Positions 35,855 through 59,367 of a stretch of 64,000 nt of DNA are shown here, one piece after another. Position 1 is the stretch's first letter. Every line of letters starts with the position of its first letter. This stretch comes from a virus (lineage: Duplodnaviria; Caudoviricetes), in IMG/VR virus record IMGVR_UViG_3300021963_000022; one strand, written 5' to 3'. The position numbers and the translations under genes are program-made. The notes under the pieces are model-generated. The model made no database searches. It worked only from the letters and a program-made list of their open reading frames with translations, and was not told where the DNA came from.

Positions 35855-36865
35855 TTAGTTGATGTTTTCTTGTTTCATATAACTATGTACCGTATCTAAT
35901 GAGGAGCTAATAGCCATATGCATATCAATGTATACGTACATTCCACAACGTCCAATAAACGTATTCTTTGGATTCTCTATCTCTCTATACTTCTTATATA
36001 AATCTCTATACGTGTCAATCGGGTAATAACGTTCATTGTTGTTATCTTTGTAATCACATGGTTCTTCAAACGTCAAAGTAGTATTACCGGTCTTAATATT
36101 ATTGGGTAACTTATTCCATTCAGTCATTCTAGTAAACGACCCATTATCAGTAAAGTTAACTACAGTAGTGGGCAACAAATTTGGTAACGGGAATGTTATA
36201 GAATGAAACTTGATAGACCTATATGGTAATTCTCCATGCACAAAATCATAATAAACATCAATGGGCATAGAGTTAAAGATATGGTCATAACTATTTTCCA
36301 TACTTTTATCAAATAGGGTGTTTAACTTAACTGTTATATTAGGATGATTTAGTATGTTAGTGAATAAAGTAGTATATCCATGAGTAGGCAAGTATTGATA
36401 TTCATCTCTAAAATATCTATCATCGTCATTATCTCTAGTACTAACTCTATTCAATACATCTTTGCTTAATGTTTTATAATGTTCCCCCCACATCTTTTTG
36501 CTATAGGGTTCAAAGAAAGTTCTATATACATCTTCTTTCTTAACTGTTTGCAATGTAGTTGTATTGACTGGAAACGGAACATATTTTCCGCTTTCTAGTA
36601 ATGCCAATACATGATGTTCATAGAATGTCCATTCAGTAAACTTACTAACCCAATCAAATACTTTTTTATTGCTAGTATGAAATATGTGCGGACCATACTT
36701 GTGTATACGTAATCCATGCTCATTAATATAATCATATGCATTACCACCTATATGATCTCTGCTATCTATAACTGTTACAGTATAATCATTTTCAGCTAGT
36801 TCACGTGCGATAGTAGCTCCAGCAAAGCCAGCGCCTACTATTAAGATATTTTGTTTTGTTCCCAT
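35855..36865 (-). CDS. glf: UDP-galactopyranose mutase
   Basis: GAGFAG FAD loop, HIGGNAYD, HKYGPHIFHT, YQ.LP..GYT, LPYRS, RYYP, GR.G.Y.Y.DM. Confidence 0.93.
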   Translation of the reverse strand: MGTKQNILIVGAGFAGATIARELAENDYTVTVIDSRDHIGGNAYDYINEHGLRIHKYGPHIFHTSNKKVFDWVSKFTEWTFYEHHVLALLESGKYVPFPVNTTTLQTVKKEDVYRTFFEPYSKKMWGEHYKTLSKDVLNRVSTRDNDDDRYFRDEYQYLPTHGYTTLFTNILNHPNITVKLNTLFDKSMENSYDHIFNSMPIDVYYDFVHGELPYRSIKFHSITFPLPNLLPTTVVNFTDNGSFTRMTEWNKLPNNIKTGNTTLTFEEPCDYKDNNNERYYPIDTYRDLYKKYREIENPKNTFIGRCGMYVYIDMHMAISSSLDTVHSYMKQENIN

Positions 36866-37644
36866 AATTCGTTTGCATCCGCTACATAAAAAGATATATC
36901 TTTAATTTGTCCCAAATGAATTGCCAGTGTTTTCATTGGCATTAGTATTTTAACATCTTGTTGTTGCCATATATGACTAATAGTATTACCTTCCCAATAT
37001 CCATCTATTGTTCCTATGTCTAATAATGAATAGAAATTTTCTTTATACTTTTTAAACAGTGATACTGGAATCATAAACGATTCATGCGTAAACCATGTTG
37101 TCCTATAATATCTATCAGGACCTGGCAATACTAAACATTCTCTTACATATGTATCATTAAATTCATTAAATGGATGATAATATAATTGAGTAAAATCTTG
37201 TGGGAATATGCCAATTGAAACGTCAGGTGCGGTTATCTGTTGAAAATAGTCATATGCCTCTATCATCTTACTAATAGTATCAGTATAGTGCAAGTAATCA
37301 TCTTCTACCAAATAAACCAACTCATCATCGGGTAGTTGACTAATATAGTCTAATGCTATTTTTAAACTATATCTAGATTTTTGTTTTATGTCTTTGAATG
37401 TAATGGATGGGTCTATTACAACATCATGAACTGATGCACCTTCATAAAACTCATGCACAAACTGTTTTGTTTCTACTGAAGAATCATCATCTATTACATG
37501 TAAGCTAAAGGCCTGACCGTAATGAGTTAATGAAGTTACTAGTGATTTATAGCACCGTTTTACACAATCATCTTTTTGGACAATACGATTACTTGCTATT
37601 GAGGCTTTATCACATGTTCTTAGTACTACATTCAACTTTTGCAT
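36841..37644 (-). CDS. GT2-like glycosyltransferase
   Basis: VIDDDS, VYLVEDDYLH, A.HL motifs. Confidence 0.75.
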   Translation of the reverse strand: MQKLNVVLRTCDKASIASNRIVQKDDCVKRCYKSLVTSLTHYGQAFSLHVIDDDSSVETKQFVHEFYEGASVHDVVIDPSITFKDIKQKSRYSLKIALDYISQLPDDELVYLVEDDYLHYTDTISKMIEAYDYFQQITAPDVSIGIFPQDFTQLYYHPFNEFNDTYVRECLVLPGPDRYYRTTWFTHESFMIPVSLFKKYKENFYSLLDIGTIDGYWEGNTISHIWQQQDVKILMPMKTLAIHLGQIKDISFYVADANELWEQNKIS

Positions 37645-38438
37645 TACTTCAAGCCTAAGATTTTACGAATACCTGTAGCACTGATAGCATGGGTTTTTTC
37701 ATCAAATATTTCTTGTTCAATCTTATAACCAACATCACGCCCGTACGTAATATTGACGATGTTTGGTACAACTTGAATCTCATATTGCCCTTGATACAAT
37801 GGATCCAAATCACGTTTAATAAATGACTTAACCTTTTCTATTTCAAATGGGTTACTACCTTGCCAGCCCTGACAGTCACGAATTTGAATAACAACTTGAC
37901 CTGTTTTAGCAATAGCACGTTTAAACAAAGCACGATGACCTTCGTGCCATGGCTGCCAACGACCTAACATTTGTACAGTTTCTTTTTTCCAGTCAAATGT
38001 GGGTCTACGCCTATTGTCATGTAGATGTGCAAAAATGAATTCACTCCATTTTTCACTGTTTTGTTCTGTGATGCGAAAGTCATATACTTCAGGCTGGATA
38101 AATGCTTTGTTGGTATCTTCGTATCTACCTTCTTTAATTGTATCAACCCATATAGTCCAATCAGCTTTGAAATTATTACGCATCTCAACTAGTGGTGCAA
38201 CAAAATCACATATTACATACTCTATGTCAGTCATTGCATCTGCTAGTTCACGCATACGCAAGCTTTGACGTATACGTCCTTCTTTGCTAAAGTCCCAATC
38301 ATTATATTTTTTACGTACATCATCGGCATTGAGCCAAGCTACACGTTTGTTAGTTGTTTGTAGATGCCCAAGTAAATGTTGAGCCAGATGAGTTTTGCCT
38401 GAGCCCGGCAAGCCCATAATAAGAATACGCTGTGTCAT
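37644..38438 (-). CDS. APS kinase-like domain fused to C-terminal HxGH nucleotidyltransferase
   Basis: MGLPGSGKT P-loop, LNADDVR, DFS.EGR, DFVAP; C-terminal MLGRWQPWHEGH. Confidence 0.82.
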   Translation of the reverse strand: MTQRILIMGLPGSGKTHLAQHLLGHLQTTNKRVAWLNADDVRKKYNDWDFSKEGRIRQSLRMRELADAMTDIEYVICDFVAPLVEMRNNFKADWTIWVDTIKEGRYEDTNKAFIQPEVYDFRITEQNSEKWSEFIFAHLHDNRRRPTFDWKKETVQMLGRWQPWHEGHRALFKRAIAKTGQVVIQIRDCQGWQGSNPFEIEKVKSFIKRDLDPLYQGQYEIQVVPNIVNITYGRDVGYKIEQEIFDEKTHAISATGIRKILGLK

Positions 38439-38493
38439 GTTATCTCCGTTAGATATAAAAATATTTATAACAGAGATAACATGTCTGTATATT

Positions 38494-38910
38494 TTACATC
38501 AATGCGTCAACATCTTCATGTGTGGTTGCGGCATCAATTTCGGCTAATCGTGCTGTTAATGTTGTTTTGGCTGTAGTTATTGCAGTAATGTCAAATTCTT
38601 CAGATGGGTTAGCACTCATTTGAAGTCTCATTTGAGTTTGTACTACCTTTTGGAATTGTTCATTAGCTTGCCCAACTAATGTACCTTTACGTTCATCAAC
38701 ACTTAAATCACGTTTACCCCAAACAATTTCTGCTGGAGTTTTAGTAATATCAAAAGTGTGAGTTGTCATAATTTCACGGTTAGGTGTTAGGTCAGGAGTA
38801 ACCTCAACTGCTTCACGCCATCCATCTTGTCCTACGGGAGGTGTAGTGTCCCAGCATTCTACTACTGCATCGGCTACTATTTTTACCCAATATCCTGTTT
38901 TAATTGCCAT
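38494..38910 (-). CDS. Hypothetical, probably fibre-associated protein
   Basis: ORF with AAGGA SD and AATAAATA motif. Confidence 0.6.
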   Translation of the reverse strand: MAIKTGYWVKIVADAVVECWDTTPPVGQDGWREAVEVTPDLTPNREIMTTHTFDITKTPAEIVWGKRDLSVDERKGTLVGQANEQFQKVVQTQMRLQMSANPSEEFDITAITTAKTTLTARLAEIDAATTHEDVDALM

Positions 38911-38931
38911 ATTAATGTTCCTTTGTAGTAT

Positions 38932-40719
38932 TTATTCTTCATCTAAGTGAGTTTCAGCAATAAATTTATTTATATCTGTATTGATGTCAGTAAAGACGGT
39001 TGTCCAATCTCCAAAAGTTTTTTGTCTATATAATCGTACACAACCATACCATTCAGTTGTATTACCGGGTTTAGCCCATAGATAGTATGGTAGGATAGGT
39101 ACTATAATCCAAGTTGATACACCCATTGAAGCTGACAAATGTGCTATACTAGTACAAGAAGATATAACCAAATCACATGTACTGATTGCATAAGCTGTCT
39201 CTTCCCAGTGACTTAACGGAACTTCATTAATCCATTGTGGTCTATGTTCTGAACCCAAATCACGTTGTAATGATATAAATTCTACATCATCATTCTTAAT
39301 TGCTTCAAAGAAGGGATTTGGTGGAAATATCCTATGTTGTTCATGTTCAAAGTCTGGGTTACCTTGCCAACGCACACCTATACGTAATTTCTTACCGTGT
39401 TTATTTCTAGTTCTAATGATATATGGATTGCCGTCGACATTTTTATATTCCATACCTAAGAACACAGGTGCAGACATACTAGGTAACCAGAAGTCGTGTA
39501 CTACCCCAAATATAGCTTCGTGTTGAATTACTGCCACTACCCCCTTAACATTACGGAATAGTGTTGCAAGTTGTCCTGAGCAAGCTACAATAACTTCACA
39601 TCCTCTATCAGCTATTTCTCTAGCAAATCTAACAGAATGAATTTGATCGCCTAATCCACCCTCAAGGTTTAGTAGTACAGTTCCTTTACTGAAACCATCC
39701 CATAACGGCATAGGTGATTTAGGTGGTTCGTTACCAAATACTTTTTCTAATCTGCCGCGATACAACAGTTTATGACCTTCTAGTAAATTGCCCTTCCACA
39801 TCTCATACCAACCACGATTAAAAGCAGCACGATTATTCCAAGGTTCTTCTATTGCTAGCTTTTCCCCTATCTTGTTTCCTTCTTCAAAATTACCTACTAT
39901 ACCAGCCGCCAGTTGCAAATCTAAATCATGTATTGGACGACTGTTCGGTCCTTCTCCTAACCAGAATCTTGGTTGTACAAAATCTCTGTGATGTCTACCC
40001 AGCACTTGTTCTGCTTTTTGATTATGCTGTTTAGCTAATATAGGTTGAATGTCATGCAGACCTTTGACTTCCCAAACTTCTTCATCACGTTCTCGTAGAC
40101 CTGTACCATCGATATTATTAAAATCATATCCATCAAAATCAGATAGTTCTAAGAAGTCATGTATTCTTTTTAATTGTTTTTTTGGATTGTTAATTAAGTC
40201 ATCGTAATCAACAAACAGAATACATTCAGGTGCAAATCTATATCCAGACTCTAATAATTGATATGATTCTTTTATATGTTTAACCAAGTAGTCATTATGT
40301 ATAAAGTCATTAATATCAGTTGGTTTAGCGACACGTACCATACTTGCTACACAATCAGGTACGTTTCTTACTGTAGCGATAATTTTTGGTTTATGCCCTA
40401 GAACTTGAGCCATAGTAGGGATGTTTACTGGGCTTACCCAGCCACGTGCTTTATCTAGTATAATTGGTTTATTGATATGAATATATTTTTCTTCGCAGAT
40501 AGTTCTTAGAATTCGTTGAATTTCTTTTTTTTGATCTACTGTATCTTTAGTAGATGATTTGACTGGTAGAGAATCTGCCCAAGCACGTAGAGTACCAATC
40601 AACATGTCTAGTAACCCACTAGTAGAAGATGCATGGATATCAGGATGTTGATTTAGAATTCCAGCTAAAACAGTTGAACCACTTCGAGGTAGACCGGAAA
40701 GAAAGTATATATTTTTCAT
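38932..40719 (-). CDS. Sulfotransferase fused to GT9-like (GT-B) glycosyltransferase
   Basis: SGLPRSGST PAPS-binding loop, VRNVPD..AS; C-terminal EGGLGDQI..RF, GVRWQGNP, CDLVISSCTS.AHL. Confidence 0.8.
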   Translation of the reverse strand: MKNIYFLSGLPRSGSTVLAGILNQHPDIHASSTSGLLDMLIGTLRAWADSLPVKSSTKDTVDQKKEIQRILRTICEEKYIHINKPIILDKARGWVSPVNIPTMAQVLGHKPKIIATVRNVPDCVASMVRVAKPTDINDFIHNDYLVKHIKESYQLLESGYRFAPECILFVDYDDLINNPKKQLKRIHDFLELSDFDGYDFNNIDGTGLRERDEEVWEVKGLHDIQPILAKQHNQKAEQVLGRHHRDFVQPRFWLGEGPNSRPIHDLDLQLAAGIVGNFEEGNKIGEKLAIEEPWNNRAAFNRGWYEMWKGNLLEGHKLLYRGRLEKVFGNEPPKSPMPLWDGFSKGTVLLNLEGGLGDQIHSVRFAREIADRGCEVIVACSGQLATLFRNVKGVVAVIQHEAIFGVVHDFWLPSMSAPVFLGMEYKNVDGNPYIIRTRNKHGKKLRIGVRWQGNPDFEHEQHRIFPPNPFFEAIKNDDVEFISLQRDLGSEHRPQWINEVPLSHWEETAYAISTCDLVISSCTSIAHLSASMGVSTWIIVPILPYYLWAKPGNTTEWYGCVRLYRQKTFGDWTTVFTDINTDINKFIAETHLDEE

Positions 40720-40754
40720 AGAGATATTTAGAACTATCCCTATATTACAAAATA

Positions 40755-41579
40755 TTAATTGGGTGGATTCTTACCTAATGCTTCAAGTAACTTTGCTTTA
40801 AGCATACTATCTAATGGGACATTCTGATATATATAAGTTAATATACCACGTACTTGAGTATAACGTTCATCTTTATGAGTATGGTTAATAAACACTATAC
40901 CACACGTTACATAGTTTTCTAAATCTTGTATTTTATAATAATGCGTTAATAGATACCACAATGTCCAACAGTTAGTTGGATTTGTCTCATACTCGTCCTT
41001 CAACATCTTTATATACAATTCAGGACGAGATTGTTTCTTGAAATCTTGGTCATGAATCAAGTAGATATCTTTGTTATATATCTCAACTTCATATCTATCT
41101 TTATGCTTGAACCAAAGATGTTCATATATGGGTTGTGCCCAAATATAATCATGCCTACGATGTATCTTGTTAGTTCCTAAAAAGTTAGGTGGACCAACTC
41201 TAACGTTTTCAGTATATAAATCTAGTCTATCGCATGAAATATTAGTAACAGTAGGATTTACTTCTATTGTCTTTTTCATTTCAGTCAATACGTTGATACT
41301 AAAATATTCATCTAAGTCAGGACTTAAACACCAATCTACATCAGTGGGAATCATATCTAAGTTATAGTTACGTGCTACATTGAATATCCATGGGGTAAAT
41401 ATCTTTTGTTCAATTATAAGATTACTATCTGTTTTTGCAGCCTCTTGAAACTTTTCCCAAGTCCCGTCTGTTGAACCGGTATCAAGTATAACTCTGTATG
41501 TAAGGTCTTTGGTATAATATAACCATTTCTCTACATATTGTAGCTCGTTTTTACATATTGTGTATGCCGCTGTTTTCAT
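40755..41579 (-). CDS. GT2-like glycosyltransferase
   Basis: YTICKNE, LDTGSTDGT, FNVARN, SPDLDE, HEH-like YEHL. Confidence 0.8.
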   Translation of the reverse strand: MKTAAYTICKNELQYVEKWLYYTKDLTYRVILDTGSTDGTWEKFQEAAKTDSNLIIEQKIFTPWIFNVARNYNLDMIPTDVDWCLSPDLDEYFSINVLTEMKKTIEVNPTVTNISCDRLDLYTENVRVGPPNFLGTNKIHRRHDYIWAQPIYEHLWFKHKDRYEVEIYNKDIYLIHDQDFKKQSRPELYIKMLKDEYETNPTNCWTLWYLLTHYYKIQDLENYVTCGIVFINHTHKDERYTQVRGILTYIYQNVPLDSMLKAKLLEALGKNPPN

Positions 41580-42181
41580 TCTTGTGTTTTGATAAATGCT
41601 GTTTGTGATCCGTCAGGGATATTTAATATGTTCAGTTTATGCCAGTTACATTGAATAAACATCTCTACCGCCATTCGTACACTCATCTGTGCTGATTGTG
41701 TACCGTTCTTATCTGTGTAACGCCAAGTAGTAGTATCATCACATAGAATAACTCCTCCTACATGTAGTATCTTCCAAGCTAATACTAAGTCAGTTAATAC
41801 TTCACTTGCTTTGTGATCTCCGTCGATGTAGATAAACTCTGCTTTAACATTAGTGTTAATCAAATCCATCAAACCATCTGTACTAAATTTTGAAATATAT
41901 GTTACATTCTTATGTTCGTTTGTTTCGAGGTTATCTAAAAAATTTTGTTTTACTACATTAAAATCTTCACTCATATCATTACTGCCGACATGAGGATCAA
42001 TTGCGTAAATGTTAAGATTCTTATTGTATAGAGTAAGTTGGTCACTCATCCAAAATGTAGTAGAACCTTCGAACACACCCACTTCTACAATTGTGTTAGG
42101 TACACCATATGTTTGTACTAGATGACCAATGTTAACCATTGCACCCTTACCGCAATTGAAATCCATACTAAATTTGTACAT
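41576..42181 (-). CDS. Class I SAM methyltransferase (Methyltransf_24-like)
   Basis: VEVGVFEGS, AIDP, FIYIDGDH, GGVILCDD. Confidence 0.82.
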   Translation of the reverse strand: MYKFSMDFNCGKGAMVNIGHLVQTYGVPNTIVEVGVFEGSTTFWMSDQLTLYNKNLNIYAIDPHVGSNDMSEDFNVVKQNFLDNLETNEHKNVTYISKFSTDGLMDLINTNVKAEFIYIDGDHKASEVLTDLVLAWKILHVGGVILCDDTTTWRYTDKNGTQSAQMSVRMAVEMFIQCNWHKLNILNIPDGSQTAFIKTQE

Positions 42182-42786
42182 TATTGCTTTCTATATATAA
42201 CTATATTTTTTTCAGGATTAATATAGGGTGTTTCTTTGACCTTAGTCAAATGTTTCTCTATCTCAGTAAACACATTGAAGTTATCGTTATTCCAAATCAC
42301 GTAACCTTTTTCATCTACATCACTAGGAACAAATCTGTTATCTTCATTTACTAAAACTAAGTATCCATTGGGTTTTAGCGTGTTGACTAAATTTTCTATC
42401 TCTTGTTTTGGATTCTCTACGTGCTGTAATACAAATACTGCTAGACACACATCTATTGAATTGTTGTCAGGTAGCTGTGATATTATTTTAAACTTACGTG
42501 GGTTACTGACATATAATGTAGCAAAAGTTTTCATGCTTTCGCTAATATCATAACCCAATACAGAACAATCAAACTTGTTTACAATATTTTTACTAACACG
42601 TCCCATGCCACAACCAAAGTCTAAAACAATCGATTCGTTAGTAATAATATTTTCGTTAGCTATTATATCAACTAAAAATTCAGTTTCTTTGCAAAACTTT
42701 TCTGGTTTGTCAGCCTCGAAACTAAGAACCACATTCATTGCTTGGGTGATTGTGGTTACATCAAATGTTTCTTTGATATATCTCAT
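42181..42786 (-). CDS. Class I SAM methyltransferase
   Basis: VLDFGCGMGR, GYDIS..M, VLQH, LKPNG. Confidence 0.85.
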   Translation of the reverse strand: MRYIKETFDVTTITQAMNVVLSFEADKPEKFCKETEFLVDIIANENIITNESIVLDFGCGMGRVSKNIVNKFDCSVLGYDISESMKTFATLYVSNPRKFKIISQLPDNNSIDVCLAVFVLQHVENPKQEIENLVNTLKPNGYLVLVNEDNRFVPSDVDEKGYVIWNNDNFNVFTEIEKHLTKVKETPYINPEKNIVIYRKQ

Positions 42787-43502
42787 GTTACAAGTTTGTC
42801 GTTGCGTTCAGTAGTTCTACCGGTCAATGGTCTAGCAAGAATAGTTGTGTCTGTTGTTACATTAATATTTTTATCATAAGCAAACATGCCCTGATGTGTA
42901 ATGTTGAACAAGTCTGCTCTCATCATAATATCTAATGGAGCACAAATTCCCATCTTCAATACATGAGCAATCAAGTTCTTTGCCATTAACGGATCGATTG
43001 CATATGCATGGGCACGACAGATAAACAGATAGTTAGGGCCTTCACTAGCATGCGGTGGAATAGTTGGATGTATTCCCCAGCCTTGCTCTGCCCATTCAGC
43101 ACCACCTAGATAGCATATTGAGTTTACTGAATCATATGATGTAAACTTTTTAGTCATAATGCTATCATGTTCAAGTATAACAATAGGCTTATCGATCTTA
43201 GCACAATGAATCCACAAGCTGATATGACTTAATGCACAAGCAACTTCACCTCTAGTTAAGTAGTGGTCAGTAATCTTTAGCATTTTAATAACTGAATCAC
43301 CTACACTATGATCGGGTACTGTGATTTCAGGGCCAATGCCATTAAAGGCATCCCACACTTTATATTGCATACCTGCATTCATACAACTGAGTTGACATCG
43401 TTTAGAATACCTCTCAGAAGATTCATTACCTTTTACAGTAATGATGTAAGCGTGTTCTACTTCAAAATCACGCTTGTAAAATAAATTAAGATTTGTGTCC
43501 AT
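42783..43502 (-). CDS. GT25-like glycosyltransferase
   Basis: GEVACALSH..LW, ILEHD, AHAYAI, PLD. Confidence 0.75.
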   Translation of the reverse strand: MDTNLNLFYKRDFEVEHAYIITVKGNESSERYSKRCQLSCMNAGMQYKVWDAFNGIGPEITVPDHSVGDSVIKMLKITDHYLTRGEVACALSHISLWIHCAKIDKPIVILEHDSIMTKKFTSYDSVNSICYLGGAEWAEQGWGIHPTIPPHASEGPNYLFICRAHAYAIDPLMAKNLIAHVLKMGICAPLDIMMRADLFNITHQGMFAYDKNINVTTDTTILARPLTGRTTERNDKLVT

Positions 43503-45207: not shown

Positions 45208-45247
45208 ATTTTCTCCGTTGTATGTTTAATTTGGCAGTGCCGACGTT

Positions 45248-45284
45248 TTTGTCTATAAAACTGTAAAGTTATTTATAGACAAAA
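45248..45284 (-). terminator. Hairpin after the RCC1 gene, overlapping a TATAAATA motif
   Basis: tttgtctataaa/tttatagacaaa inverted repeat; TATAAATA at 45270-45277 on the minus strand. Confidence 0.55.
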
Positions 45285-45301
45285 CACTAGGTTGATTAAT
45301 T

Positions 45302-51300: not shown

Positions 51301-54300
51301 TATCTACTTGATATGAACTATTGTTACCCCAACCAAATAATTGATTAGTACTAGTTAATGCAAGAACGTGATTTACACCTGCACTAACTTGTGACCAACT
51401 ACTAGCACCAATTTGTGTTGGGCTATTTATGTATGGTGTTGCACCAAGTTGTACAGGACTACTACGAGGTTCTAACCAACTACCTGATATAGTTACAGGG
51501 TTAAACGGTATACCTAATTGGCCATAATCATTGGCACCCCAGAAATATGCTCTACCATCAGTAGTGATACCACCTACTGTTCCAGCGCCGGCATTAACAA
51601 CAACCCAATTACTTGTACCTACTAGTACTGGGGTACTACGATGTACCTGATCACCTAATCCGAGTTGTCCACCAGTATTAAATCCCCAAGTAAATAGTTT
51701 TCCATCGGATCTAACAGCGGTTGACATCGACATTCCAGCACCAACACTTATCCAAGAATCATTCATTGAGCGAATGAATACCGGGCTACTTCTGCTTGTT
51801 AAGTTTAATGTACCTAACTCACCGATAGTACCGTTACCCCAAGTAAACAATGCGTTACCTGTATCGGCTGCAGTAATACCTAACACGTTAGTAAGGCCAG
51901 TTACCATTGTCCAGCTAGTTGAACCAATTTGTAAAGGTGTTAATTTAGAAGTATTAGTACCATCACCGAATGTTCCATATGTATTGTTACCCCATGCAAA
52001 TAGTAAACCATCACTTCGTATTGCCAAAAACCCCATAACAATTAAACCAATTGTAGTCCAAGAATCTGCTACTGAACGAATAAATACTGGGCTGGATCTA
52101 GAAACAAGAAAACCGTTACCCATTTGACCATTGGAATTGCTGCCCCAAGTAAACAGTTGTCTATTTTGATCAAGTGCGGTTATCGCAGTACCTGCATTAA
52201 CGGTAGTCCAACTACCTGTACCTGTAGTAAGAGTAGGGCTATAATAATAAGTTGCTCCTAAGCTATCACCCATTTGGCCTGCGGTGCCCAAGCCCCACAT
52301 ATATAGTAAATTATTACTTATACCAGCTGTGATTGTACTTGCAGTTACTACACTCCAACTACTTGTACCAATTTGTACTGGACTACTACGATGTTGTGTA
52401 GAATCCGGAGTTCCTAACACACCATTAGTACCTGCACCCCATGTGAATAATGAGCCTCCACTACGTATAGCTACTGTCCATGAGGCACCAGATGCTACTT
52501 GAGTCCAACTACTTGTACCAATTTGTACTGGGTTACTACGATGTTGAGTAGTACCATCACCTAGTTGTCCAAATGTGTTTACTCCCCATGCATATAGTGC
52601 ACCAGTTGTACGTATAGCAGTACTTACATTACCTGCAAAATAAACTTTTGACCATGTGTTTTCAGTACCAATTTGTACTGGGCTACTACGATGTATCCTA
52701 TCATTTAATCCCAGTTGACCTAAATCATTAAAACCCCAACTCCATAATGTACCATCATTACGAACACCTAATATTGTACCGCCGGATGCGTAGTAGTTAG
52801 GGCCTGTTGCAACAGCAGTCCAGATGCTTGCACCAATTTGTGTTGGACTACTACGATGTATCCTATCATTTAATCCCAGTTGACCTGAATCATTAGAACC
52901 CCAACTCCATAATGTACCATCACTACGTATTGCAGCCGTTGTTCGTTCAAATGTTGCTACTGTCAACCAACTACTTGTACCAACCTGTACAGGACTACTT
53001 CTGCTTTGTACATCATTTAGTCCTAATCCACCATAAAATCCTTGGCCCCATGCAAACAATAATCCGTCATTACGAATAGCAAACGTTGTATCTTGATTAG
53101 TTACTACAGTAGACCAACTGTAGCCAGTCTTACCTGTTTTTGTCAAATATGCCTGTTGTTCTGCAGGTGAAGTGAACGAAACAATTTGTACAGGGCTTGT
53201 TCGTGCATTAATAGATGAATCACCCAATGCGCTGCCTGATGGTTGACCCCAAGTGAACAATGCACCATCACTACGTATAGCACCAGTTGCGGTGGCATTC
53301 ACACCTACGGCCACAGTAGTCCAATTACTTGTACCAATTTGTACTGGGCTACTACGATGTTGAGTAGTACCATCACCTAGTTGACTGGCGCCGCCATACC
53401 CCCATGCAAATAATTTACTATCAGTTCGTATTGCAAGTGTGGTATTAATTTCTGCTGACACCAGTGTCCAACTGTTACCTGTACCTACTTGTACTGGGCT
53501 ACTTCTAGCAATAATATCGTTTACTCCAAGCTGACCATAATTATTCAGACCCCAACCATATAACTTACCATCCAGTGTAATAGCAAAGGTAGATGTAGCA
53601 ATCCCCCCTATAGATGGCACAAATGACCAACTACTTGAACCAATTTGAACTGGACTACTACGATGTACTAGGTCATTTAAACCTAATTGACCATTTGTAT
53701 TGCTTCCCCAAATAAATAACAATCCGTCACTTCTAATAGCGTAAGTATGACTAACACCAGCAGCAATACCACTCCAATTACTTGTGCCAACTTGCACCGG
53801 ACTACTTCTGTGTATAATATCATTTAAACCAAGTTGTCCGGTAGTATTAAGTCCCCATGCAAATAACTTACTATCGCTACGAATAGCAAATGAATTAGAG
53901 TAACCTGCACTTACTTTAGTCCAGCTCAATGTTCTAGGTTTACCTGTACTAGTTGACCAAGCAATTTCATCAGCTAATGTAAACAATGATGTTATTATAA
54001 CAGGGTTTTCGAATATACCTCCACTACCATTTGTACCTAATTGCCCATTGGCATTGTTACCCCAACCATATAAAACATTGTTATTGTCTAACGCAAGAAC
54101 GTGATTTACACCTGCACTAACTTGTGACCAACTACTAGCACCAATTTGTACTGGACTACTACGATGTACCTGATCACCTAATCCGAGTTGTCCACCAGTA
54201 TTATTTCCCCATGACCATAGTGTTTTATTGTCATGTATTGCTAGTGTAAAATTGACACCTTGTGTAACTTGGTACCAATTATGCGTAGTTGCATTTACCT

Positions 54301-57300
54301 GCACCGGGCTACTAGTATTTACTACACTGTTAATACCTAATTCACCAACTGTATTACCGCCCCATGCATAGATATAACCGTTACCATTACTATTGTCTTG
54401 TATTATTCCCATGCGTCCAGCAACCATAGTCCAACTACTTGTACCAATTTGTACTGGGCTAGATTTATTAACTGTAGTAGTGTCTCCTAGACCACCATAC
54501 GTGTTGTTACCCCATGCAAATAATGCGCCATCACTACGAATTGCAGAGACTACATATGCACTAACAATATTACCAGATTGACTTGAACTAACCATAAGCC
54601 AACTACTTGTACCAATTTGTACTGGGCTACTTCTATTTGTAGTGTCATTGATACCCAATTGGCCTGTGGAATTATCTCCCCAAGACCATAATTTATTATT
54701 AATATCAATACTAAAAGCGTTACTAAAACCGGCGGCTAACTTCTTCCATTTACCTGTACCAATTTGTACCGGGCTACTGCGATGCACGGTGTCATCTTCA
54801 CCTAATTCTCCTACTGCATTATCACCCCATGACCATAATGTTCCATCTAATCTTATACCATATGAGGATGAGTCTAATCCAGCTACTGCAGAAGTCCAAA
54901 ATAAATTACCAATTTGTACTGGGCTACTGCGAGCCACAACAGTATTATCTCCTACTTGACCAATAGTATTGGCTCCCCATGCAAACAATCTGCCATCAAC
55001 AGTAATACCCACAGGAGTAAGATTTCCTGCAGAAATAACATTCCAGAGACTTGTACCAACTTGTACTGGACTACTTCTAAGTACGGCGGTTGTATTTGCA
55101 CCTAATGCACCGACTGAATTATCAGATCCCCATGACCAGAGTGTTCTGTCACTACGTATGGCAAACAAAAATCCACGTCCAGCACTAAGTGCAGTCCAAC
55201 TACTTGTACCAACTTGTACTGGACTACTGCGATGTACTAGATTATTTGTACCTAACTGACCATATGTATTACTACCCCAAGTCCATAAACTACCATTACT
55301 TCGTATACCTGCTGCAGTTTGTGTTCCATCTACCGGCGTACTAGAGCCTGATAGATATGTCCAACTTAATAAATCTTTACCTAACTGTATTGGCTGTGAT
55401 TTAGATATAATATTGCTGTCTCCTAATACGCCAGAGTCACCTTGACCCCACAACCATAGTGTATTATCATTTCGTATACCTGCAATGTGCAATGAATTAG
55501 GAGTTCCTATACCTATACCTGTCCAAGAATCATTCATAGAACGAATAAAGACCGGTGATGATCTATGCGTTGTGTTGTTCTCCCCTAGTTGTCCGTTGGT
55601 GCCAGTGCCCCATGTAAATAATTGCCCTGATGAGTCAATACCCACACTAGTTGATCCTCCACCAGGTACTAGACTCCAACTACTTGTAGTAATTTGTTGG
55701 GGAATCGTTGTAGTACCCGGAACTGATAGACCATTTGCGCCATTATTATACAGCCCCCATTTAAATAATAATCCATCACTCCGTATAGCAGAGTACAAAT
55801 TATCACCTGCACTTACGTATGTCCATGAATCTTTACCTGAAATAATGAATACTGGGCTACTACGTGAAATACTATTACCTTCGCCTACATATTGTCCAAG
55901 GCCCCAAGACCATAACATACCATTACTGTCAATAGCGGCAGCAAATCCACCTACCATATTCCAACTGTTAGCACCACCAATTTGTACTGGGCTACTACGA
56001 TGTTGAGTAGTACCATCACCTAATTCTGATTGTCCATTATATCCCCACGCCCATAATGACCCATCTATTCGTCTTCCGTACATAGCAGGGTAACCACCGT
56101 TAACTTGAGACCATAAATTTGTACCAATTTGAACTGGACTACTACGAGATACTATGTCATTTAAACCTAATTGGCCATATGTATTATCACCCCAAGTAAA
56201 TAATCTGTTATCTGAAGTAATACCCGAGCTAGCATTAATGTAACTGTTTATCATAGTCCAGCTACTTGTGCCAACTTGCACTGGACTACTTCTGTGTATA
56301 TTATCATTTAAACCAAGTTGTCCGGTAGTGTTAGTTCCACATGCCCATAAACTACCATCATTGCGTATAGCCAGGGATACATATCCTATAGCGGAGACCA
56401 TGATCCAGCTACTTGTACCAACTTGCACTGGGCTACTACGCCAATTTGTATCATTTAATCCCAATGAACCGAGACCGTTATATCCCCAGGCCCATAGTGA
56501 TCCGTTATTTTTAATAGCCAGAGCCTGAAAGCCACCACTAACATGTGTCCAATTATAATCTGTACCAACTTGTACTGGACTACTTCTATGAACTTTATCG
56601 TTTAATCCCAGTTGTCCGTATGTATTATCACCCCATGTCCATAAACTACCATCATTACGAATTGCAAATGTAGAACCATTGCCTAATATTGCCGTAGTCC
56701 AACTATCTGTACCAATTTGTACAGGACTAGACCTGCTGTTAGTGGAGTTTATACCTAACTGACCATATGTATTACTACCCCAGGCAAATAATTTACCATC
56801 ATTACGTATAGCTAACTTATTGGCTGAGCCACCATTTATATATACCCAACTAGTTCCAGTTGAACCTATTGTAGTTAAATATGAATTATATGAAACTGTT
56901 AATGGAGATGTTGTTAGTGCAGTAATTTGTACTGGACTACTTCTTGATATACCATAACCATCGCCAATATACGTTCCAAGGCCCCATGTGTATAATTCGC
57001 CCCCCGTGGTTATTCCCATAGTCATGTTTTTACCACTAGTAATCATAGCCCAACTATCTATACCAATTAGTACAGGACTAGACCTGCTGATAGTGGAGTT
57101 TATACCTAGTTGCCCGTTTGTATTACTACCCCAGGCAAATAACGCACCACTGACAGTTATACCGGCCATCATGTCGGTGCCAGCACTAACCATAAGCCAA
57201 TTACTTGTACCAACTTGTACTGGACTACTACGATGTACCTGATCACCTAATCCGAGTAGTCCACCAGTATTATTTCCCCATGACCATAACTTTTGATTTG

Positions 57301-58462
57301 AATCTATAGCGGCACTATTTGGAGAGGGAATACCACCGTTTTGAATCAATTTACTCCAGGTACCTGTACCAATTTGTACCGGACTACTTCTATGTAGAAT
57401 ATTATTTAAACCAAGTTCTCCAAAAGTATTACCACCCCATGACCATAATGTATTATCTGCACGTAGTGCTAGTGCAGTTCCGTAACTACCCATGTTTCCA
57501 TTAACTGAAATACTAGTCCAGCTACTTGTACCAATTTGTACCGGACTACTACGATGTATCCTATCATTTAATCCTAATTCTCCATGGGAATTAGATCCCC
57601 AAGCAAATAATACACCGTCATTTCTTATAGCAAATAGTGAACCTATTTGATTATATGCTACTGTAGTCCAACTACGCTGTGCTATAGCTATACTACTTGT
57701 ATATGATTTTTGTATTTGAGATGTACTTAATGAACCAGTTAATGTTGGACTGGAAAGCTGTGTGGTATTATTGTTACCGGATTGGCCTTGGGAAACATTA
57801 CCCCAAACAAACAACAAGTTGTCATTACGCACCCCAAAACGACCGCTGGAGGTGCCTGCTGCACCACCTAATGCAATCCAACTACTTGTACCAATTTGTA
57901 CTGGACTACTTCTAGAGATAAGAGTATTATCACCCAATTGTCCTTCACCATTTCGACCCCAAGCCCATAGTGTGCCATTTGATTTTATAGCTATACTATT
58001 AATACCGGTTAATACCTGAGTCCAGCTTGAAGGTTCCCCCCATACTGATGACATACTATTATTACCAAGTTGACCATTAAAGCCTAAACCCCAAGCATAT
58101 ATTAGTCCATTATAATCAATAGCATAAGAAGTGTCACCGTTAGCACTAACCTTACTCCAATTATTAATCCCAAGTTGTACTGGGCTACTACGATGTACTA
58201 AGGTGACATCATTGTTACCTAATTGACCATATGTATTAGCACCCCAAGCGAATAGTTTGCCATCACTTCGAATGCCTATTGTATGACTTAAACCGCTTGC
58301 TATCTGACTCCATGACTGTGCACCAATCAATGCAGGACTAGATTTAAAAGTTCTATCTTCTGTACCTAATTGACCCCATGTATTGTCACCAAACATGTAT
58401 AATGATTCTACATCTACTCCCGTTGAGGGCTGGACAGTTAATAACCACTTTTCTAATGACAT
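45302..58462 (-). CDS. Giant RCC1/BLIP-II-repeat beta-propeller protein (4386 aa), probably virion-exposed
   Basis: About 80 (length-based estimate) ~50-aa repeats: AIR.DG.L(W/F).WG.N..GQLG....RSSPVQ(I/V)GTSSW..VSAG. Confidence 0.92.
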   Translation of the reverse strand: MSLEKWLLTVQPSTGVDVESLYMFGDNTWGQLGTEDRTFKSSPALIGAQSWSQIASGLSHTIGIRSDGKLFAWGANTYGQLGNNDVTLVHRSSPVQLGINNWSKVSANGDTSYAIDYNGLIYAWGLGFNGQLGNNSMSSVWGEPSSWTQVLTGINSIAIKSNGTLWAWGRNGEGQLGDNTLISRSSPVQIGTSSWIALGGAAGTSSGRFGVRNDNLLFVWGNVSQGQSGNNNTTQLSSPTLTGSLSTSQIQKSYTSSIAIAQRSWTTVAYNQIGSLFAIRNDGVLFAWGSNSHGELGLNDRIHRSSPVQIGTSSWTSISVNGNMGSYGTALALRADNTLWSWGGNTFGELGLNNILHRSSPVQIGTGTWSKLIQNGGIPSPNSAAIDSNQKLWSWGNNTGGLLGLGDQVHRSSPVQVGTSNWLMVSAGTDMMAGITVSGALFAWGSNTNGQLGINSTISRSSPVLIGIDSWAMITSGKNMTMGITTGGELYTWGLGTYIGDGYGISRSSPVQITALTTSPLTVSYNSYLTTIGSTGTSWVYINGGSANKLAIRNDGKLFAWGSNTYGQLGINSTNSRSSPVQIGTDSWTTAILGNGSTFAIRNDGSLWTWGDNTYGQLGLNDKVHRSSPVQVGTDYNWTHVSGGFQALAIKNNGSLWAWGYNGLGSLGLNDTNWRSSPVQVGTSSWIMVSAIGYVSLAIRNDGSLWACGTNTTGQLGLNDNIHRSSPVQVGTSSWTMINSYINASSGITSDNRLFTWGDNTYGQLGLNDIVSRSSPVQIGTNLWSQVNGGYPAMYGRRIDGSLWAWGYNGQSELGDGTTQHRSSPVQIGGANSWNMVGGFAAAIDSNGMLWSWGLGQYVGEGNSISRSSPVFIISGKDSWTYVSAGDNLYSAIRSDGLLFKWGLYNNGANGLSVPGTTTIPQQITTSSWSLVPGGGSTSVGIDSSGQLFTWGTGTNGQLGENNTTHRSSPVFIRSMNDSWTGIGIGTPNSLHIAGIRNDNTLWLWGQGDSGVLGDSNIISKSQPIQLGKDLLSWTYLSGSSTPVDGTQTAAGIRSNGSLWTWGSNTYGQLGTNNLVHRSSPVQVGTSSWTALSAGRGFLFAIRSDRTLWSWGSDNSVGALGANTTAVLRSSPVQVGTSLWNVISAGNLTPVGITVDGRLFAWGANTIGQVGDNTVVARSSPVQIGNLFWTSAVAGLDSSSYGIRLDGTLWSWGDNAVGELGEDDTVHRSSPVQIGTGKWKKLAAGFSNAFSIDINNKLWSWGDNSTGQLGINDTTNRSSPVQIGTSSWLMVSSSQSGNIVSAYVVSAIRSDGALFAWGNNTYGGLGDTTTVNKSSPVQIGTSSWTMVAGRMGIIQDNSNGNGYIYAWGGNTVGELGINSVVNTSSPVQVNATTHNWYQVTQGVNFTLAIHDNKTLWSWGNNTGGQLGLGDQVHRSSPVQIGASSWSQVSAGVNHVLALDNNNVLYGWGNNANGQLGTNGSGGIFENPVIITSLFTLADEIAWSTSTGKPRTLSWTKVSAGYSNSFAIRSDSKLFAWGLNTTGQLGLNDIIHRSSPVQVGTSNWSGIAAGVSHTYAIRSDGLLFIWGSNTNGQLGLNDLVHRSSPVQIGSSSWSFVPSIGGIATSTFAITLDGKLYGWGLNNYGQLGVNDIIARSSPVQVGTGNSWTLVSAEINTTLAIRTDSKLFAWGYGGASQLGDGTTQHRSSPVQIGTSNWTTVAVGVNATATGAIRSDGALFTWGQPSGSALGDSSINARTSPVQIVSFTSPAEQQAYLTKTGKTGYSWSTVVTNQDTTFAIRNDGLLFAWGQGFYGGLGLNDVQSRSSPVQVGTSSWLTVATFERTTAAIRSDGTLWSWGSNDSGQLGLNDRIHRSSPTQIGASIWTAVATGPNYYASGGTILGVRNDGTLWSWGFNDLGQLGLNDRIHRSSPVQIGTENTWSKVYFAGNVSTAIRTTGALYAWGVNTFGQLGDGTTQHRSNPVQIGTSSWTQVASGASWTVAIRSGGSLFTWGAGTNGVLGTPDSTQHRSSPVQIGTSSWSVVTASTITAGISNNLLYMWGLGTAGQMGDSLGATYYYSPTLTTGTGSWTTVNAGTAITALDQNRQLFTWGSNSNGQMGNGFLVSRSSPVFIRSVADSWTTIGLIVMGFLAIRSDGLLFAWGNNTYGTFGDGTNTSKLTPLQIGSTSWTMVTGLTNVLGITAADTGNALFTWGNGTIGELGTLNLTSRSSPVFIRSMNDSWISVGAGMSMSTAVRSDGKLFTWGFNTGGQLGLGDQVHRSTPVLVGTSNWVVVNAGAGTVGGITTDGRAYFWGANDYGQLGIPFNPVTISGSWLEPRSSPVQLGATPYINSPTQIGASSWSQVSAGVNHVLALTSTNQLFGWGNNSSYQVDNSGSNRSSPTQIGSSSWSQISAGNVHSLAIASDNSLYGWGLQYQPWVYDSLQTLTNYLLTNDITSSWTSLTNESSKFTGIKSDGTLWTWGLNNIGQLGLNDIFNRSSPVQVGTSSWSMVNTAESWTTAIRSDGTLWAWGLNTNGNLGLNDRIHRSSPTQIGTDNSWTIVGGNGAIRNDGSLWTWGTNLYGQLGINAPTSGFNRSSPVQVGTSSWIMIDSRWSSYGVSAIKSDGTLWAWGNNTNGQLGIGSNSNNISSPVQVTSITTLEQQNTYLTNTGSSTYSWTSISANGTSGAVTTGAIRSDGALFMWGLGFWGGLGDNTTVNKSSPVQIGTSSWTQVSVGAEEFAYAVRIDGTLWTWGLNNIGQLGLNDTINRSSPVQIGTSSWTIVAAGQYCVSAIRSDGALFSWGNNNIGQLGLNDIIHRSSPVQVGTSSWTQVRANNGATAALSINGILFTWGSNADGKLGLNDRIHRSSPTQIGTSSWTQVSVGHSAMAAISSNNNLWTWGLNTTGQLGLNDIFNRSSPVQVGTSSWTSVASGVLQTLAIRSDNTLWAWGSNTNGQLGLNDRIHRSSPVQVGTSSWFNINGLADHIVAIENTSKQLFSWGNNNIGQLGLNDSINRSSPVFIRTANDSWNQISMQGLYASAAIRSDGLLFTWGANSSGQLGNNTVFSRSIPVQVGISSWSQISVGTSFMVGRTSNKLLYAWGNNGYGQLGLNDTVNRSTPTLISTSSWSFISAGSTSTIGTHDGNILLYGWGDNNSGQLGLNDMLHRSSPVQIASYVSMPKKIGTDAWSKISAGYYHNVGIQTNNKLYGWGNTAANTFTAYSWTKATASAGHVAAIRSDGLLFTWGDNDDGNLGSNNTLHRSIPIQVGTSSWTQISAGGITTTTDLTTFGISSANLLYGWGAGGSGQLGLGTIANRSSPVQISTFTTEQIQQTYLTNTGKTGFSWTQISASGNLGTLAAIRNDGALFIWGLNNYGQLGLNSITAVYSPVQVGTSSWTQVSVGNGATYAIRIDNTLWSWGANVNGQLGLNDREHRSSPVQVGTSSWTMISGGTGSTNAGTGIAAALRIDGALFSWGNNATGQLGLNDTINRSSPVQVGTSSWSQISAGSPDGSTNMYGIRLDGTLWSWGDAASGALGQNQSGIPRSSPVQVGTDTNWQQVSSGAGYFMAIKTTGSLWACGFGVFGALGTGNSSSALVPVQVGTSSWTSVSAGSAWSTSAIKADNTLWAWGLNTNGQLGLNDTVHRSSPVQIGTSTWSKVSSGTNPGVIMAISFTNKQLYIWGQNSSGQLGLGETIGARSSPMFVRSVTESWNAISAGAATTIGIRSDNTLWAWGLGTNGQLGDNTIISKSVPIQIGTSSWSQVSAGNSYNTALTVDKRLFVWGLGTTGQIGDNAQLSRSSPVQIGASWTMVSAGGSTVGAINSNNLLFTWGGNSNGQLGDRSVIHRSSPVQVNSFTSAQIQQTYLTNTSKPAAFSWSQVNINSLTSAAIRSDGALFMWGQNIQGQLGLNNTIHRSSPVQVGTSSWTQVSVGTSSMAAIRSDGTLWSWGSNDSGQLGLGDSVNRSSPVQVGTSSWISVASALGGAAFLALDATNRLFAWGANTNGELAQNNVISRNSPVQIATGSTWLSISNRGRGAIRSDGALFMWGLGTNGQIGDNAQLSRSSPVQIGSSSWSVISAGWSHTAAITSTGLLYVWGGNNSGELGLNDISWRSSPVQLGAFSWTSVSSGFNHTVGIRSDKLLFAWGLNSNGQTGDANTSNRSSPVQIGTSSWAMVSAGSASTTGLDLLYGLYTWGNNSTGQLGIDSVLAATSPVFLPTTSDSWTNISTQNGYQLGIRSDGYLFGWGINASGQLGLGDQVPRSAPVQIGTYVSPILSVSNNASQGLIIVDGKMATWGLNNSGQLGVNDRISRSSPVQIGNNQSLVPPNMYSIPTQIGSSSWTQVSANFNNTLLVDPNNVLYEWGFNDNRPIRPIITAVGISAGTVSNGYNHFGITK

Positions 58463-58465
58463 ACT

Positions 58466-58975
58466 TTACCCACCAAACTCTGGCCAAATAATGTTAAACG
58501 GATCTGTCTGTGTAGTAATATCAGCTAATGCTTGCATATATGCATCCATTAATGTTAAATTATCTACAGGTGTTTCGCCCAGTCTAACTTGTCTATCATA
58601 ACGAGTATATCTCCACTCAAATGATGACATTCTAGTATCACGTTCACCTCTTATTAGGTTCCATTGTGCATTAGTACTAAATTCTTGTTGTAATTGTATA
58701 TCCTCTGGAGTAGGTTCATATACTGCAAATCTTGGTAACTCAATAATGTCCATTGTCTCATATGCTACACCATCAGAAAAATATTGTCTAGGGTTATCTA
58801 TTTTTTGTGTTTCTGGATTATATTCAGGATACGCTTTAACTAAAGTATACCAACCAACAGACAATCTTTCTTCTTCAGTAAATACATGAAAATTACTGAT
58901 GTTTTTCCAATTATTTGGAATAAGGTCATATACACCTTCTATGTTACCGTCAACTACATGTGCATAATTAGCCAT
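58466..58975 (-). CDS. Tail fibre assembly chaperone-like protein
   Basis: C-terminal W..IR.ERD.......W...Y.QAL.DIT.Q.DPF.I.WP motif. Confidence 0.75.
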   Translation of the reverse strand: MANYAHVVDGNIEGVYDLIPNNWKNISNFHVFTEEERLSVGWYTLVKAYPEYNPETQKIDNPRQYFSDGVAYETMDIIELPRFAVYEPTPEDIQLQQEFSTNAQWNLIRGERDTRMSSFEWRYTRYDRQVRLGETPVDNLTLMDAYMQALADITTQTDPFNIIWPEFGG

Positions 58976-59367
58976 TATAAATTCTGCCCTGAAATGAATG
59001 CTTGCCAGTTTGTACCACCATCAACTGTAAAGAACGCAAAAACGTCTTCTTTACCATTAGATGAAGTTAGTGTAGGAGCCGTACCTGTTGGCCAATGAAA
59101 GCTTGCAGGCCATGTGACTGACCGTGCTGTTCCGTCTGCTGTAAAGATTAATACAAATGAACTTACTCTTCCTGATGCTTGTATATTAGACAATGTTATA
59201 GAAGTTATATTTGCGTTTAATGCCACTGTAAATACTGCGGCTGTGTTTAGATTTAGTGCCAAGGCGCCTGCAGAAATAGTTGCGGCCGCACTTACTTCTG
59301 CTGAATTATTAGGTAAAAATATTTTATTATCGTCAATGACGGTTGAACTGCTTACTTTTATGGCCAT
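58975..59367 (-). CDS. Small tail-associated beta-sandwich protein
   Basis: L.L.T..VF...L..N.......F.L...DGT.R.VTWP....WP.GTAPTLT...G..D.F.F...DGGT.W. Confidence 0.7.
   Translation of the reverse strand: MAIKVSSSTVIDDNKIFLPNNSAEVSAAATISAGALALNLNTAAVFTVALNANITSITLSNIQASGRVSSFVLIFTADGTARSVTWPASFHWPTGTAPTLTSSNGKEDVFAFFTVDGGTNWQAFISGQNL

Follow-up and report, generated by a model that had tools for sequence, protein, structure and literature searches.

Which molecules are modified by a phage that carries, directly after the gene for a giant repeat protein, a row of genes for enzymes handling sugars, methyl groups and sulfate? The question is raised by the viral record IMGVR_UViG_3300021963_000022 (Duplodnaviria, Caudoviricetes), of which a stretch of 64,000 nucleotides (nt), here called the window, has been analysed. 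All genes of the locus lie on the minus strand. A block of fibre genes is followed by an open reading frame (ORF) of 4386 amino acids (aa) consisting of RCC1 repeats, denominated here the giant, and by ten co-directional enzyme-type genes. The first of these encodes the core enzyme, a 573-aa fusion of a GT9-like glycosyltransferase to a methyltransferase. The region is a large example of a conserved module, made of a fibre-tip domain, a fibre chaperone, a Ser-rich RCC1 multi-propeller and the soluble GT9-type/methyltransferase fusion, usually accompanied by a GT25 enzyme and surrounded by a variable shell of other enzymes. We lean, by a little, to the view that the enzymes modify the RCC1 protein.

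The two genes are closely linked in viruses. Relatives of the 573-aa protein were found in 115 viral loci, 80 of which were kept, and 8 loci featuring a sulfotransferase fusion were added; 82 viral loci have usable upstream DNA. In 69 of the 82, fewer than 400 nt separate the end of the RCC1 coding sequence from the GT9-like gene downstream of it; in 78 the distance is within 1.4 kb. Enzyme identity across these loci ranges from 49 to 95%. RCC1, the GT9-like/methyltransferase fusion and GT25 form a constant core, while other methyltransferases, GT-A enzymes, the mutase gene glf and sulfation genes vary.

The association is not restricted to phages. A profile scan of bacterial and archaeal sequences identified 49 loci, in which the enzymes are 34-69% identical. 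A same-strand RCC1 ORF is located, upstream or downstream, within 150 nt in 22 of the 49 and within 3 kb in 32; the loci lacking an RCC1 ORF are mostly short contigs. Enzyme and RCC1 are paired in Bdellovibrionota, Saccharibacteria, Nomurabacteria, Phycisphaerales, a Caulobacter metagenome-assembled genome (MAG) and Methylocucumis, and the module has been found also in a contig binned to an archaeon. Two loci of Bacteroidota MAGs probably belong to phages. On the complete chromosome of Bdellovibrio Bd16 (3.4 Mb) the enzyme is encoded once, and RCC1 proteins by about eight genes, two of which directly follow the enzyme gene. The sequence-only reading of this region had proposed to look for co-occurrence of RCC1 giants and these enzymes across phage genomes. 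Such co-occurrence is found, in phages as well as beyond their lineage; the linkage is strong, and genetically ties the enzymes to RCC1 proteins far outside this group of phages.

Among 50,697 GenBank phage records, strong matches to the enzyme were detected only in Synechococcus phages BUCT-ZZ01 and S-SRM01 and in the marine virus AG-345-E08, and the same three provide the best GenBank phage matches to the propeller of the giant. In BUCT-ZZ01, which is cultured, fibre, chaperone, RCC1 (700 aa) and enzyme genes are ordered as in the window. No close relative of the window was found among GenBank phages, and the enzyme cluster gave no match by megablast. The searchable literature, including the description of S-SRM01, holds no mention of an RCC1-enzyme module. 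A paper on prasinoviruses (PMC12906663), retrieved as a possible link between RCC1 and glycosyltransferases, was rejected, as 'RCC' denotes there culture-collection strain numbers.

The features of the locus are, in the order of transcription:

59398..62175, minus strand: 925-aa fibre, with a baseplate-wedge/fibre-connector-like N-terminus (phrog_677, 7e-24, residues 19-226) and a C-terminus of the Peptidase_S74 type, a self-cleaving intramolecular chaperone (phrog_8215, 5e-29, residues 826-925; PF13884, 9e-9)
58975..59367, minus strand: tf130, 130-aa fibre-tip domain protein (phrog_9017, tail fiber protein, 2e-18)
58466..58975, minus strand: 169-aa tail-fibre assembly chaperone (PF16778, 34.2 bits, cut-off 26.6; phrog_4912)
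45302..58462, minus strand: 4386-aa all-RCC1 protein, candidate fibre appendage and candidate glycosylation substrate (PF00415, PF25390; phrog_4219, 1e-70)
45240..45285, minus strand: intergenic hairpin (z = -2.3) with a T4-type late-promoter-like box (TATAAATA) in its 5' arm
43486..45207, minus strand: 573-aa fusion of a helical N-terminus (about 1-75), a GT9-type GT-B domain (about 84-358) and a class I S-adenosylmethionine (SAM) methyltransferase (about 367-573), as assigned from the predicted fold
42783..43502, minus strand: GT25-family glycosyltransferase (PF01755, 2.6e-13)
42181..42786, minus strand: SAM methyltransferase of the Methyltransf_11 type (PF08241, 1e-15)
41576..42181, minus strand: SAM methyltransferase of the Methyltransf_24 type (PF13578, 2e-16), with a weak match to TylF-like O-methyltransferases
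40755..41579, minus strand: GT2a, a GT-A (GT2-like) glycosyltransferase (phrog_13126, beta-1,4-glycosyltransferase, 7e-32)
38932..40719, minus strand: 595-aa fusion of a sulfotransferase of the 3'-phosphoadenosine-5'-phosphosulfate (PAPS) type (residues 1-250; PF13469, 1.4e-18) to a second GT9-like domain (residues 263-594)
38494..38910, minus strand: p138, 138-aa conserved protein, co-occurring with the sulfotransferase fusion
37644..38438, minus strand: 264-aa fusion of an adenosine-5'-phosphosulfate (APS)-kinase-like P-loop domain (PF01583, 45.6 bits) to an HxGH nucleotidyltransferase-like domain
36841..37644, minus strand: GT2b, 267-aa weakly GT2-like protein (PF00535, 20.3 bits, cut-off 23.3)
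35855..36865, minus strand: glf, UDP-galactopyranose mutase, maker of UDP-galactofuranose (PF03275, 2e-49; TIGR00031, 5e-82)

Genes are tightly packed, intergenic distances from the fibre gene to glf ranging from -25 to +94 nt; the giant and the 573-aa gene are spaced by 94 nt. Fibre and chaperone genes had been placed upstream of the giant by the sequence-only reading, and correspond to the 925-aa fibre, tf130 and the PF16778 chaperone. Its list of enzymes holds for glf, GT25, the methyltransferases, the sulfotransferase, the APS kinase and one GT2; the second GT2 assignment (GT2b) is weak, and the 138-aa gene had been left out. The two GT9-like fusions, one to a sulfotransferase and one to a methyltransferase, were correctly recognised, as judged by fold and paralogy (below).

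The giant is an array of beta-propellers. Pfam models detect in it 72 PF00415 stretches (1814 bits) and 22 PF25390 stretches (2310 bits), which assign it to the RCC1 family. A blade-specific hidden Markov model made for this analysis finds 83 blades; overall about 84 are present, enough for twelve 7-bladed propellers, and they span the protein from about residue 22 to the C-terminal end. Ser (14.0%), Gly (13.5%) and Thr (9.6%) abound. The motifs RSSP and GTSSW occur 57 and 27 times, respectively; the modal distance between successive copies, 49-50 residues, equals the length of one blade. In the AlphaFold2 (AF2) model of residues 3589-4060 (predicted local distance difference test, pLDDT, 86.5) blades are four-stranded throughout; in each of them a beta-strand is formed by RSSPVQ[IV], GTSS makes up the loop leading to the following strand, and a recurring insert, F-T-[TS]-x-x-x-Q-Q-x-Y-L-T-N-T, forms a short helix between blades. 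Since they are strand and loop of a modelled blade, the Ser/Thr clusters are structural repeat positions, seven per propeller, rather than linker-like or disordered mucin-like tracts. The regular spacing noted earlier has a period of one blade. The first ten residues or so of the giant (window 58430-58462, M-x-L-E-K-W-L-L type) are conserved in the RCC1 proteins of many relatives, ranging from 418 to 4386 aa; this N-terminal peptide may be a docking or chaperone-recognition element.

The serine motif parallels the presence of the enzyme. Matches to [ST][ST]P[VTI][QL] were counted per RCC1 blade. The giant has 0.71 motifs per blade, and nearly all the other enzyme-adjacent RCC1 proteins have 0.35-0.88. 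The value is 0-0.18 in a second RCC1 class of the same two Bdellovibrio genomes, and 0.00 in Clostridioides phages that have a fibre-module RCC1 protein and lack such an enzyme. This contrast fits the blade-motif serines being putative acceptor sites.

The nature of the 573-aa enzyme is revealed by its fold. The protein has no match in Pfam (GT9 included, at E <= 0.01), and a sequence search of the PDB returned nothing; only the fold search gave matches. The AF2 model, built from an alignment of 32 relatives (pLDDT 89.7), features helices at the N-terminus, followed by a GT-B domain and a methyltransferase of class I, and is matched by Foldseek to 3tov (8e-7). The GT-B domain is closest to heptosyltransferases, and has accordingly been classified as GT9/heptosyltransferase-like: VIA Z scores are 18.6 for 3tov, 17.8 for WaaF, 17.1 for TibC and 16.7 for WaaC, and the next unrelated GT-B proteins, epimerases, score 10.9. 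Curated GT9 sequence models do not recognise the protein (14 bits with TIGR02193, heptosyltransferase I, cut-off 185), and heptose-pathway genes were not found in the window. In the 32-sequence alignment Cys288 is the sole invariant cysteine of the family, and a Gly-Asp motif, close to where the catalytic domain begins, does not vary either. Residues 263-594 of the 595-aa protein and 1-363 of the 573-aa protein are paralogous segments (34% identity, 8e-70).

In the TibC/TibA pair, many serines of a repeat protein are glycosylated by a cytoplasmic GT9-type enzyme whose gene is adjacent (PMC4358343). Bacterial autotransporter heptosyltransferases (BAHT), to which TibC/TibA and AAH/AIDA-I belong (PMC4358343), are the nearest working analogy of the phage enzyme. 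Both have a soluble GT9-type fold (TibC aligns over 248 residues with a root-mean-square deviation of 3.0), and both are encoded next to a long repeat protein with regularly spaced serines, RCC1 being the presumptive substrate in the phage. BAHT substrates are modified in the cytoplasm before leaving it, and the same is proposed for the phage RCC1 protein. Differences are also evident. The phage enzyme is not a BAHT member, because its N-terminus (residues 1-75) is helical, in place of the BAHT beta-barrel, and because it has a single invariant cysteine, in place of the four-cysteine iron finger. Moreover, its partner is a beta-propeller array and not a beta-helix autotransporter, and the enzyme carries a fused methyltransferase or sulfotransferase.

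The remaining enzymes would provide further sugars, methyl groups and sulfate. GT25 scores 50.8 bits (Pfam cut-off 24) over profile positions 19-104 of 199, which places it in the family; present in 74 of 137 loci, it is the second most constant enzyme of the module. GT2a scores below the cut-offs of the Pfam GT2 models (23.9 bits, cut-off 27.5, and 19.5 bits, cut-off 23.3), and so does GT2b, relatives of which occur in 39 of the 137 loci. The glf product is recognised as a UDP-galactopyranose mutase by PF03275 (168 bits) and by PF13450 (72 bits), which covers the flavin adenine dinucleotide-binding Rossmann motif; the NCBIfam equivalog TIGR00031 gives 275.9 bits, slightly below its cut-off of 303.75.

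The sulfotransferase domain is clearly assigned by PF13469 (Sulfotransfer_3, 68.4 bits, cut-off 27) and PF00685 (46.4 bits, cut-off 22), over residues 6-193, with the N-terminal PAPS-binding loop included. Orthologues of the 595-aa fusion stand directly after RCC1 genes in the eight loci L001-L008 (L denotes the loci compared). The 264-aa protein resembles PAPS synthases, in which ATP sulfurylase and APS kinase are joined, as it similarly couples a P-loop domain of the APS-kinase type with an HxGH domain of the nucleotidyltransferase type. Both domains are however much shorter than the canonical ones, and the activity is a predicted one. PF01583 (cut-off 21.1) is matched only at profile positions 5-94 of 152, and NCBIfam APS-kinase models score far below their cut-offs; the APS kinase 2yvu of the PDB is matched at 1.4e-6, and phrog_10255 over the full length at 5e-50. 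The nucleotidyltransferase part scores best with nicotinamide mononucleotide adenylyltransferases. The full two-domain gene was found only in loci with the sulfotransferase, and the fusion is probably the supplier of the sulfate donor.

In contigs of Phycisphaerales, Saccharibacteria and Caulobacter, too, the p138 gene accompanies the sulfotransferase fusion. The p138 product matched neither the 169-aa chaperone (BLASTP) nor any PHROG family; its Atlas model resembles a PF16778 cluster (TM score 0.58), a lead only towards a tail-assembly-chaperone-like fold. When window positions 37644-40719 are compared with L009:13629-15870, GT2a, a 139-aa p138-like gene and GT2b are present in the latter, and the sulfotransferase/GT9 and APS-kinase fusions are missing. 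The sulfation cassette has been gained or lost recently, since relatives 95% identical in the 573-aa gene are devoid of both fusions.

Enzymes of this kind could be directed at the cell rather than at the virion. They would then remodel the host envelope (lipopolysaccharide (LPS) core, O-antigen or capsule), blocking superinfection or keeping virions from sticking to dying cells, and RCC1 would be a mere neighbour. GT9 and GT25 enzymes are best known from the synthesis of LPS and lipo-oligosaccharide cores, and glf from O-antigen and capsule pathways. LPS-type GT9 enzymes work at the cytoplasmic face and have no membrane helices. WaaC, WaaF and other GT9 members of the CAZy classification (PDB 2h1f, 1psw, 3tov) are moreover the best fold matches of the 573-aa enzyme (Z 16.7-18.6), on a par with TibC. 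The 573-aa family differs from LPS heptosyltransferases in failing the GT9 sequence models, in being paired with RCC1 and not with core-LPS genes, and in its occurrence in lineages without LPS, the enzyme adjoining RCC1 in contigs binned to Saccharibacteria, Nomurabacteria and an archaeon. None of the cluster proteins has a convincing membrane helix, and flippase, polymerase, ligase, lipid-carrier transferase and export genes were not found in the cluster. A host-surface target is disfavoured by this lack of membrane, lipid-carrier and export genes, together with the presence of the module in contigs binned to bacteria of the candidate phyla radiation (CPR) and to an archaeon. The layout with fibre genes and late-type boxes points in the same direction, as does, weakly, the sulfotransferase domain, whose nearest solved sequences are protein-tyrosine sulfotransferases (2e-5). 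We regard remodelling of the envelope as unlikely.

The target might also be a virion protein other than RCC1, such as the 925-aa fibre, the tf130 tip, the capsid or the tail tube, or the product a free glycan, with RCC1 serving as a lectin-like binder or scaffold; beta-propellers often bind ligands. According to Freeman et al. (2023, Cell Host Microbe), as cited in PMC12619734, phage virion glycosylation is established only in mycobacteriophages, and the proteins modified there are capsid and tail-tube subunits, which suits such a target. So does the finding of the enzyme after a giant that is not an RCC1 protein (L055/L056, see below). In the mycobacteriophages, as far as the account in PMC12619734 goes, glycosyltransferase genes similarly lie beside structural genes and the phage decorates its own virion proteins; C-termini of capsid and tail-tube subunits are modified, hosts are actinobacterial, and the modification has been measured. 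Here fibre-associated propellers are the proposed target, and the enzymes belong to other families, sulfation and methylation included. In Bdellovibrio, RCC1 proteins are the only constant neighbours of the enzyme, and no fibre or capsid genes are present there; this, as well as the Ser-rich blade motif tracking the enzyme, argues against a different virion target, which we likewise hold to be improbable.

Whether the giant belongs to the virion at all is a question to be kept apart from that of its modification. The protein could act inside the infected cell or be released on lysis, as a decoy or matrix protein, modified or not, and the blades, extending over nearly the whole chain, leave no recognisable fibre-attachment or trimerisation domain. 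The gene is however located in a fibre module, directly after the fibre chaperone, and Rosetta-stone fusions join RCC1 proteins to the fibre-tip domain. The full length of tf130 aligns with the first 134 residues or so of the RCC1 protein of a Saccharibacteria locus (L103, 5e-21), and its C-terminal 85 residues or so align near the start of that of a Nomurabacteria locus (L091, 2e-15). The same domain makes the C-terminus of fibres of 575-1544 aa in relatives, and it is found in the tail fibre of BUCT-ZZ01 (residues 1099-1162, 1e-11). It is free-standing at window positions 58975-59367, and part of longer proteins at L091:5830-8373, L103:3042-5654 and L151:2114-5620. When tf130 and residues 1-250 of the giant, each given as an alignment, were modelled as a complex, the score was 0.00, a result that counts in neither direction.

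RCC1 proteins have been found in virions of cultured phages. Three phrog_4219 proteins (W70_237-239) were detected by mass spectrometry in purified W70 virions (PMC11370258), and the RCC1-like GAP_001 in GAP32 virions (PMC5259590). These share with the giant the family phrog_4219, which is its best PHROG match; they are single propellers of about 40 kDa of a more distant RCC1 subtype, while the giant has about twelve propellers in one chain. The GT9-like enzyme was not found in W70 and GAP32. The tail fibres annotated in the Pseudomonas phages Littlefix and PollyC include RCC1-type propellers. In the Clostridioides phage LIBA2945, infecting C. difficile, a 1627-aa RCC1 protein (L153:2132-7015) is encoded with an annotated tail-fibre gene on either side; it lacks the Ser-rich blade motif, a GT9-like enzyme is missing as well, and it is an independent case of a multi-propeller RCC1 protein in a fibre module. 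PHROGs files the phage RCC1 families phrog_4219, 7220 and 16766 under 'DNA, RNA and nucleotide metabolism'; gene context and published virion proteomics suggest that they are misfiled structural or fibre proteins. The evidence for the giant being part of the virion is indirect but convergent, and a role outside the virion appears rather less plausible still than the alternatives above. A glycan on the fibres, one of the two sites named by the sequence-only reading, is partly supported by the enzyme-RCC1 linkage, by the position of RCC1 in the fibre module and by virion proteins of the same PHROG.

A modification of RCC1 in the cytoplasm is compatible with signals found in Bdellovibrionota. Twelve partner RCC1 proteins of Bdellovibrionota open with a twin-arginine motif, [ST]RRxFL. 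The motif is found at L113:11610-18246, and also in L098 and L104-L122; the second RCC1 class of these genomes has neither this nor the Ser-rich blade motif. The twin-arginine translocation (Tat) pathway exports already folded proteins. The signals suggest, accordingly, that the propeller folds in the cytoplasm and is modified there by a soluble enzyme; the phage needs no export, because its virions are assembled in the cytoplasm.

Boxes resembling T4-type late promoters are found ahead of four genes, those of tf130, the 573-aa fusion, p138 and the kinase. The box of the 573-aa gene is 63-70 nt upstream of it, within the hairpin, a perfect 14-bp inverted repeat set between the giant gene and the enzyme operon. 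The 95% relative L009 retains the hairpin, in which one pair has passed from C-G to A-U by a change in each arm. Scans for sigma-70 promoters and terminators gave results at chance level. Metatranscriptome contigs from four studies match exactly short parts of the 573-aa gene and of the p138/kinase region; they are sparse, and DNA carry-over is possible.

The modification of RCC1 proteins may then proceed as follows. Late in infection, cytoplasmic enzymes would act on folded or folding propellers, and the GT9-like domains would attach a first sugar to the Ser/Thr residues recurring once per blade. The glycan would be extended by GT25 and the GT-A enzymes, with the mutase supplying UDP-galactofuranose. 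Methyltransferases and the sulfotransferase would cap it, the APS-kinase fusion topping up the sulfate donor. The decorated giant would finally be attached to the tail-fibre apparatus, where it would serve for adhesion or shielding. Which sugar is used, which residues receive it, and whether sulfate and methyl groups sit on glycan or protein are points at which we infer the chemistry, the candidates being galactofuranose, methyl and sulfate.

Hypermodification of phage DNA, on which phage glycosyltransferases often act, is a very improbable use of these transferases: the cluster does border the ribonucleotide reductase genes nrdA/nrdB, but these stand apart from it in many relatives, base-modifying and nucleotide-handling enzymes are missing from the cluster, and the enzyme-RCC1 pair is found in bacterial chromosomes beside Tat-exported proteins.

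Several observations weigh against a modification of the RCC1 protein, or weaken the arguments used for it. Glycosylation is inferred from the genes of this phage and its relatives. Much of the co-occurrence in phages is synteny inherited within one lineage, and some MAG loci may be mis-binned phage DNA, as L089 and L090 almost certainly are. The enzyme of Bdellovibrio HCB337 has no RCC1 gene within 10 kb; several motif-rich RCC1 proteins are encoded elsewhere in that genome. At L056:2099-9826, and also in L055, the GT9-like enzyme is preceded by a 2575-aa giant repeat protein which is not RCC1 and has a weak DUF6242 match; the two loci suggest that the partner of the enzyme can be swapped. 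The RCC1 proteins of S-SRM01 lack the strict motif, the enzyme-adjacent proteins of L102 and L132 reach just 0.14 motifs per blade, and the motif may be a mere mark of a sequence subfamily inherited with the enzyme. Fold scores are tied between LPS heptosyltransferases and TibC, so that the acceptor is not identified by fold. What the late-promoter boxes match is the T4 consensus, which this phage may not use. The giant, finally, has no recognisable anchoring domain.

With these points considered, the slight preference for RCC1 as the substrate stands. A wider proposal is more tentative, and we take it as possible, somewhat short of an even chance: that phages, predatory Bdellovibrio and episymbiotic CPR bacteria share a dedicated and undescribed system for O-glycosylation, methylation and sulfation of RCC1 beta-propeller adhesins, mobile among them, which in this phage would lay a sulfated galactofuranose coat on a twelve-propeller appendage. 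All these entities must attach to other cells, a need that they have in common. The core pair is present in tractable carriers, BUCT-ZZ01, growing on Synechococcus elongatus PCC 7942, and B. bacteriovorus Bd16.

If true, the appendage would be the first glycosylated and sulfated receptor-binding structure described in phages, and RCC1 propellers a new class of substrates for GT9-type protein glycosyltransferases. Abundant lake phages depend on fibre chemistry for their host range, stickiness and survival, and the occurrence of the module in Bdellovibrio and CPR bacteria would be a sign of a common toolkit for cell-to-cell attachment.

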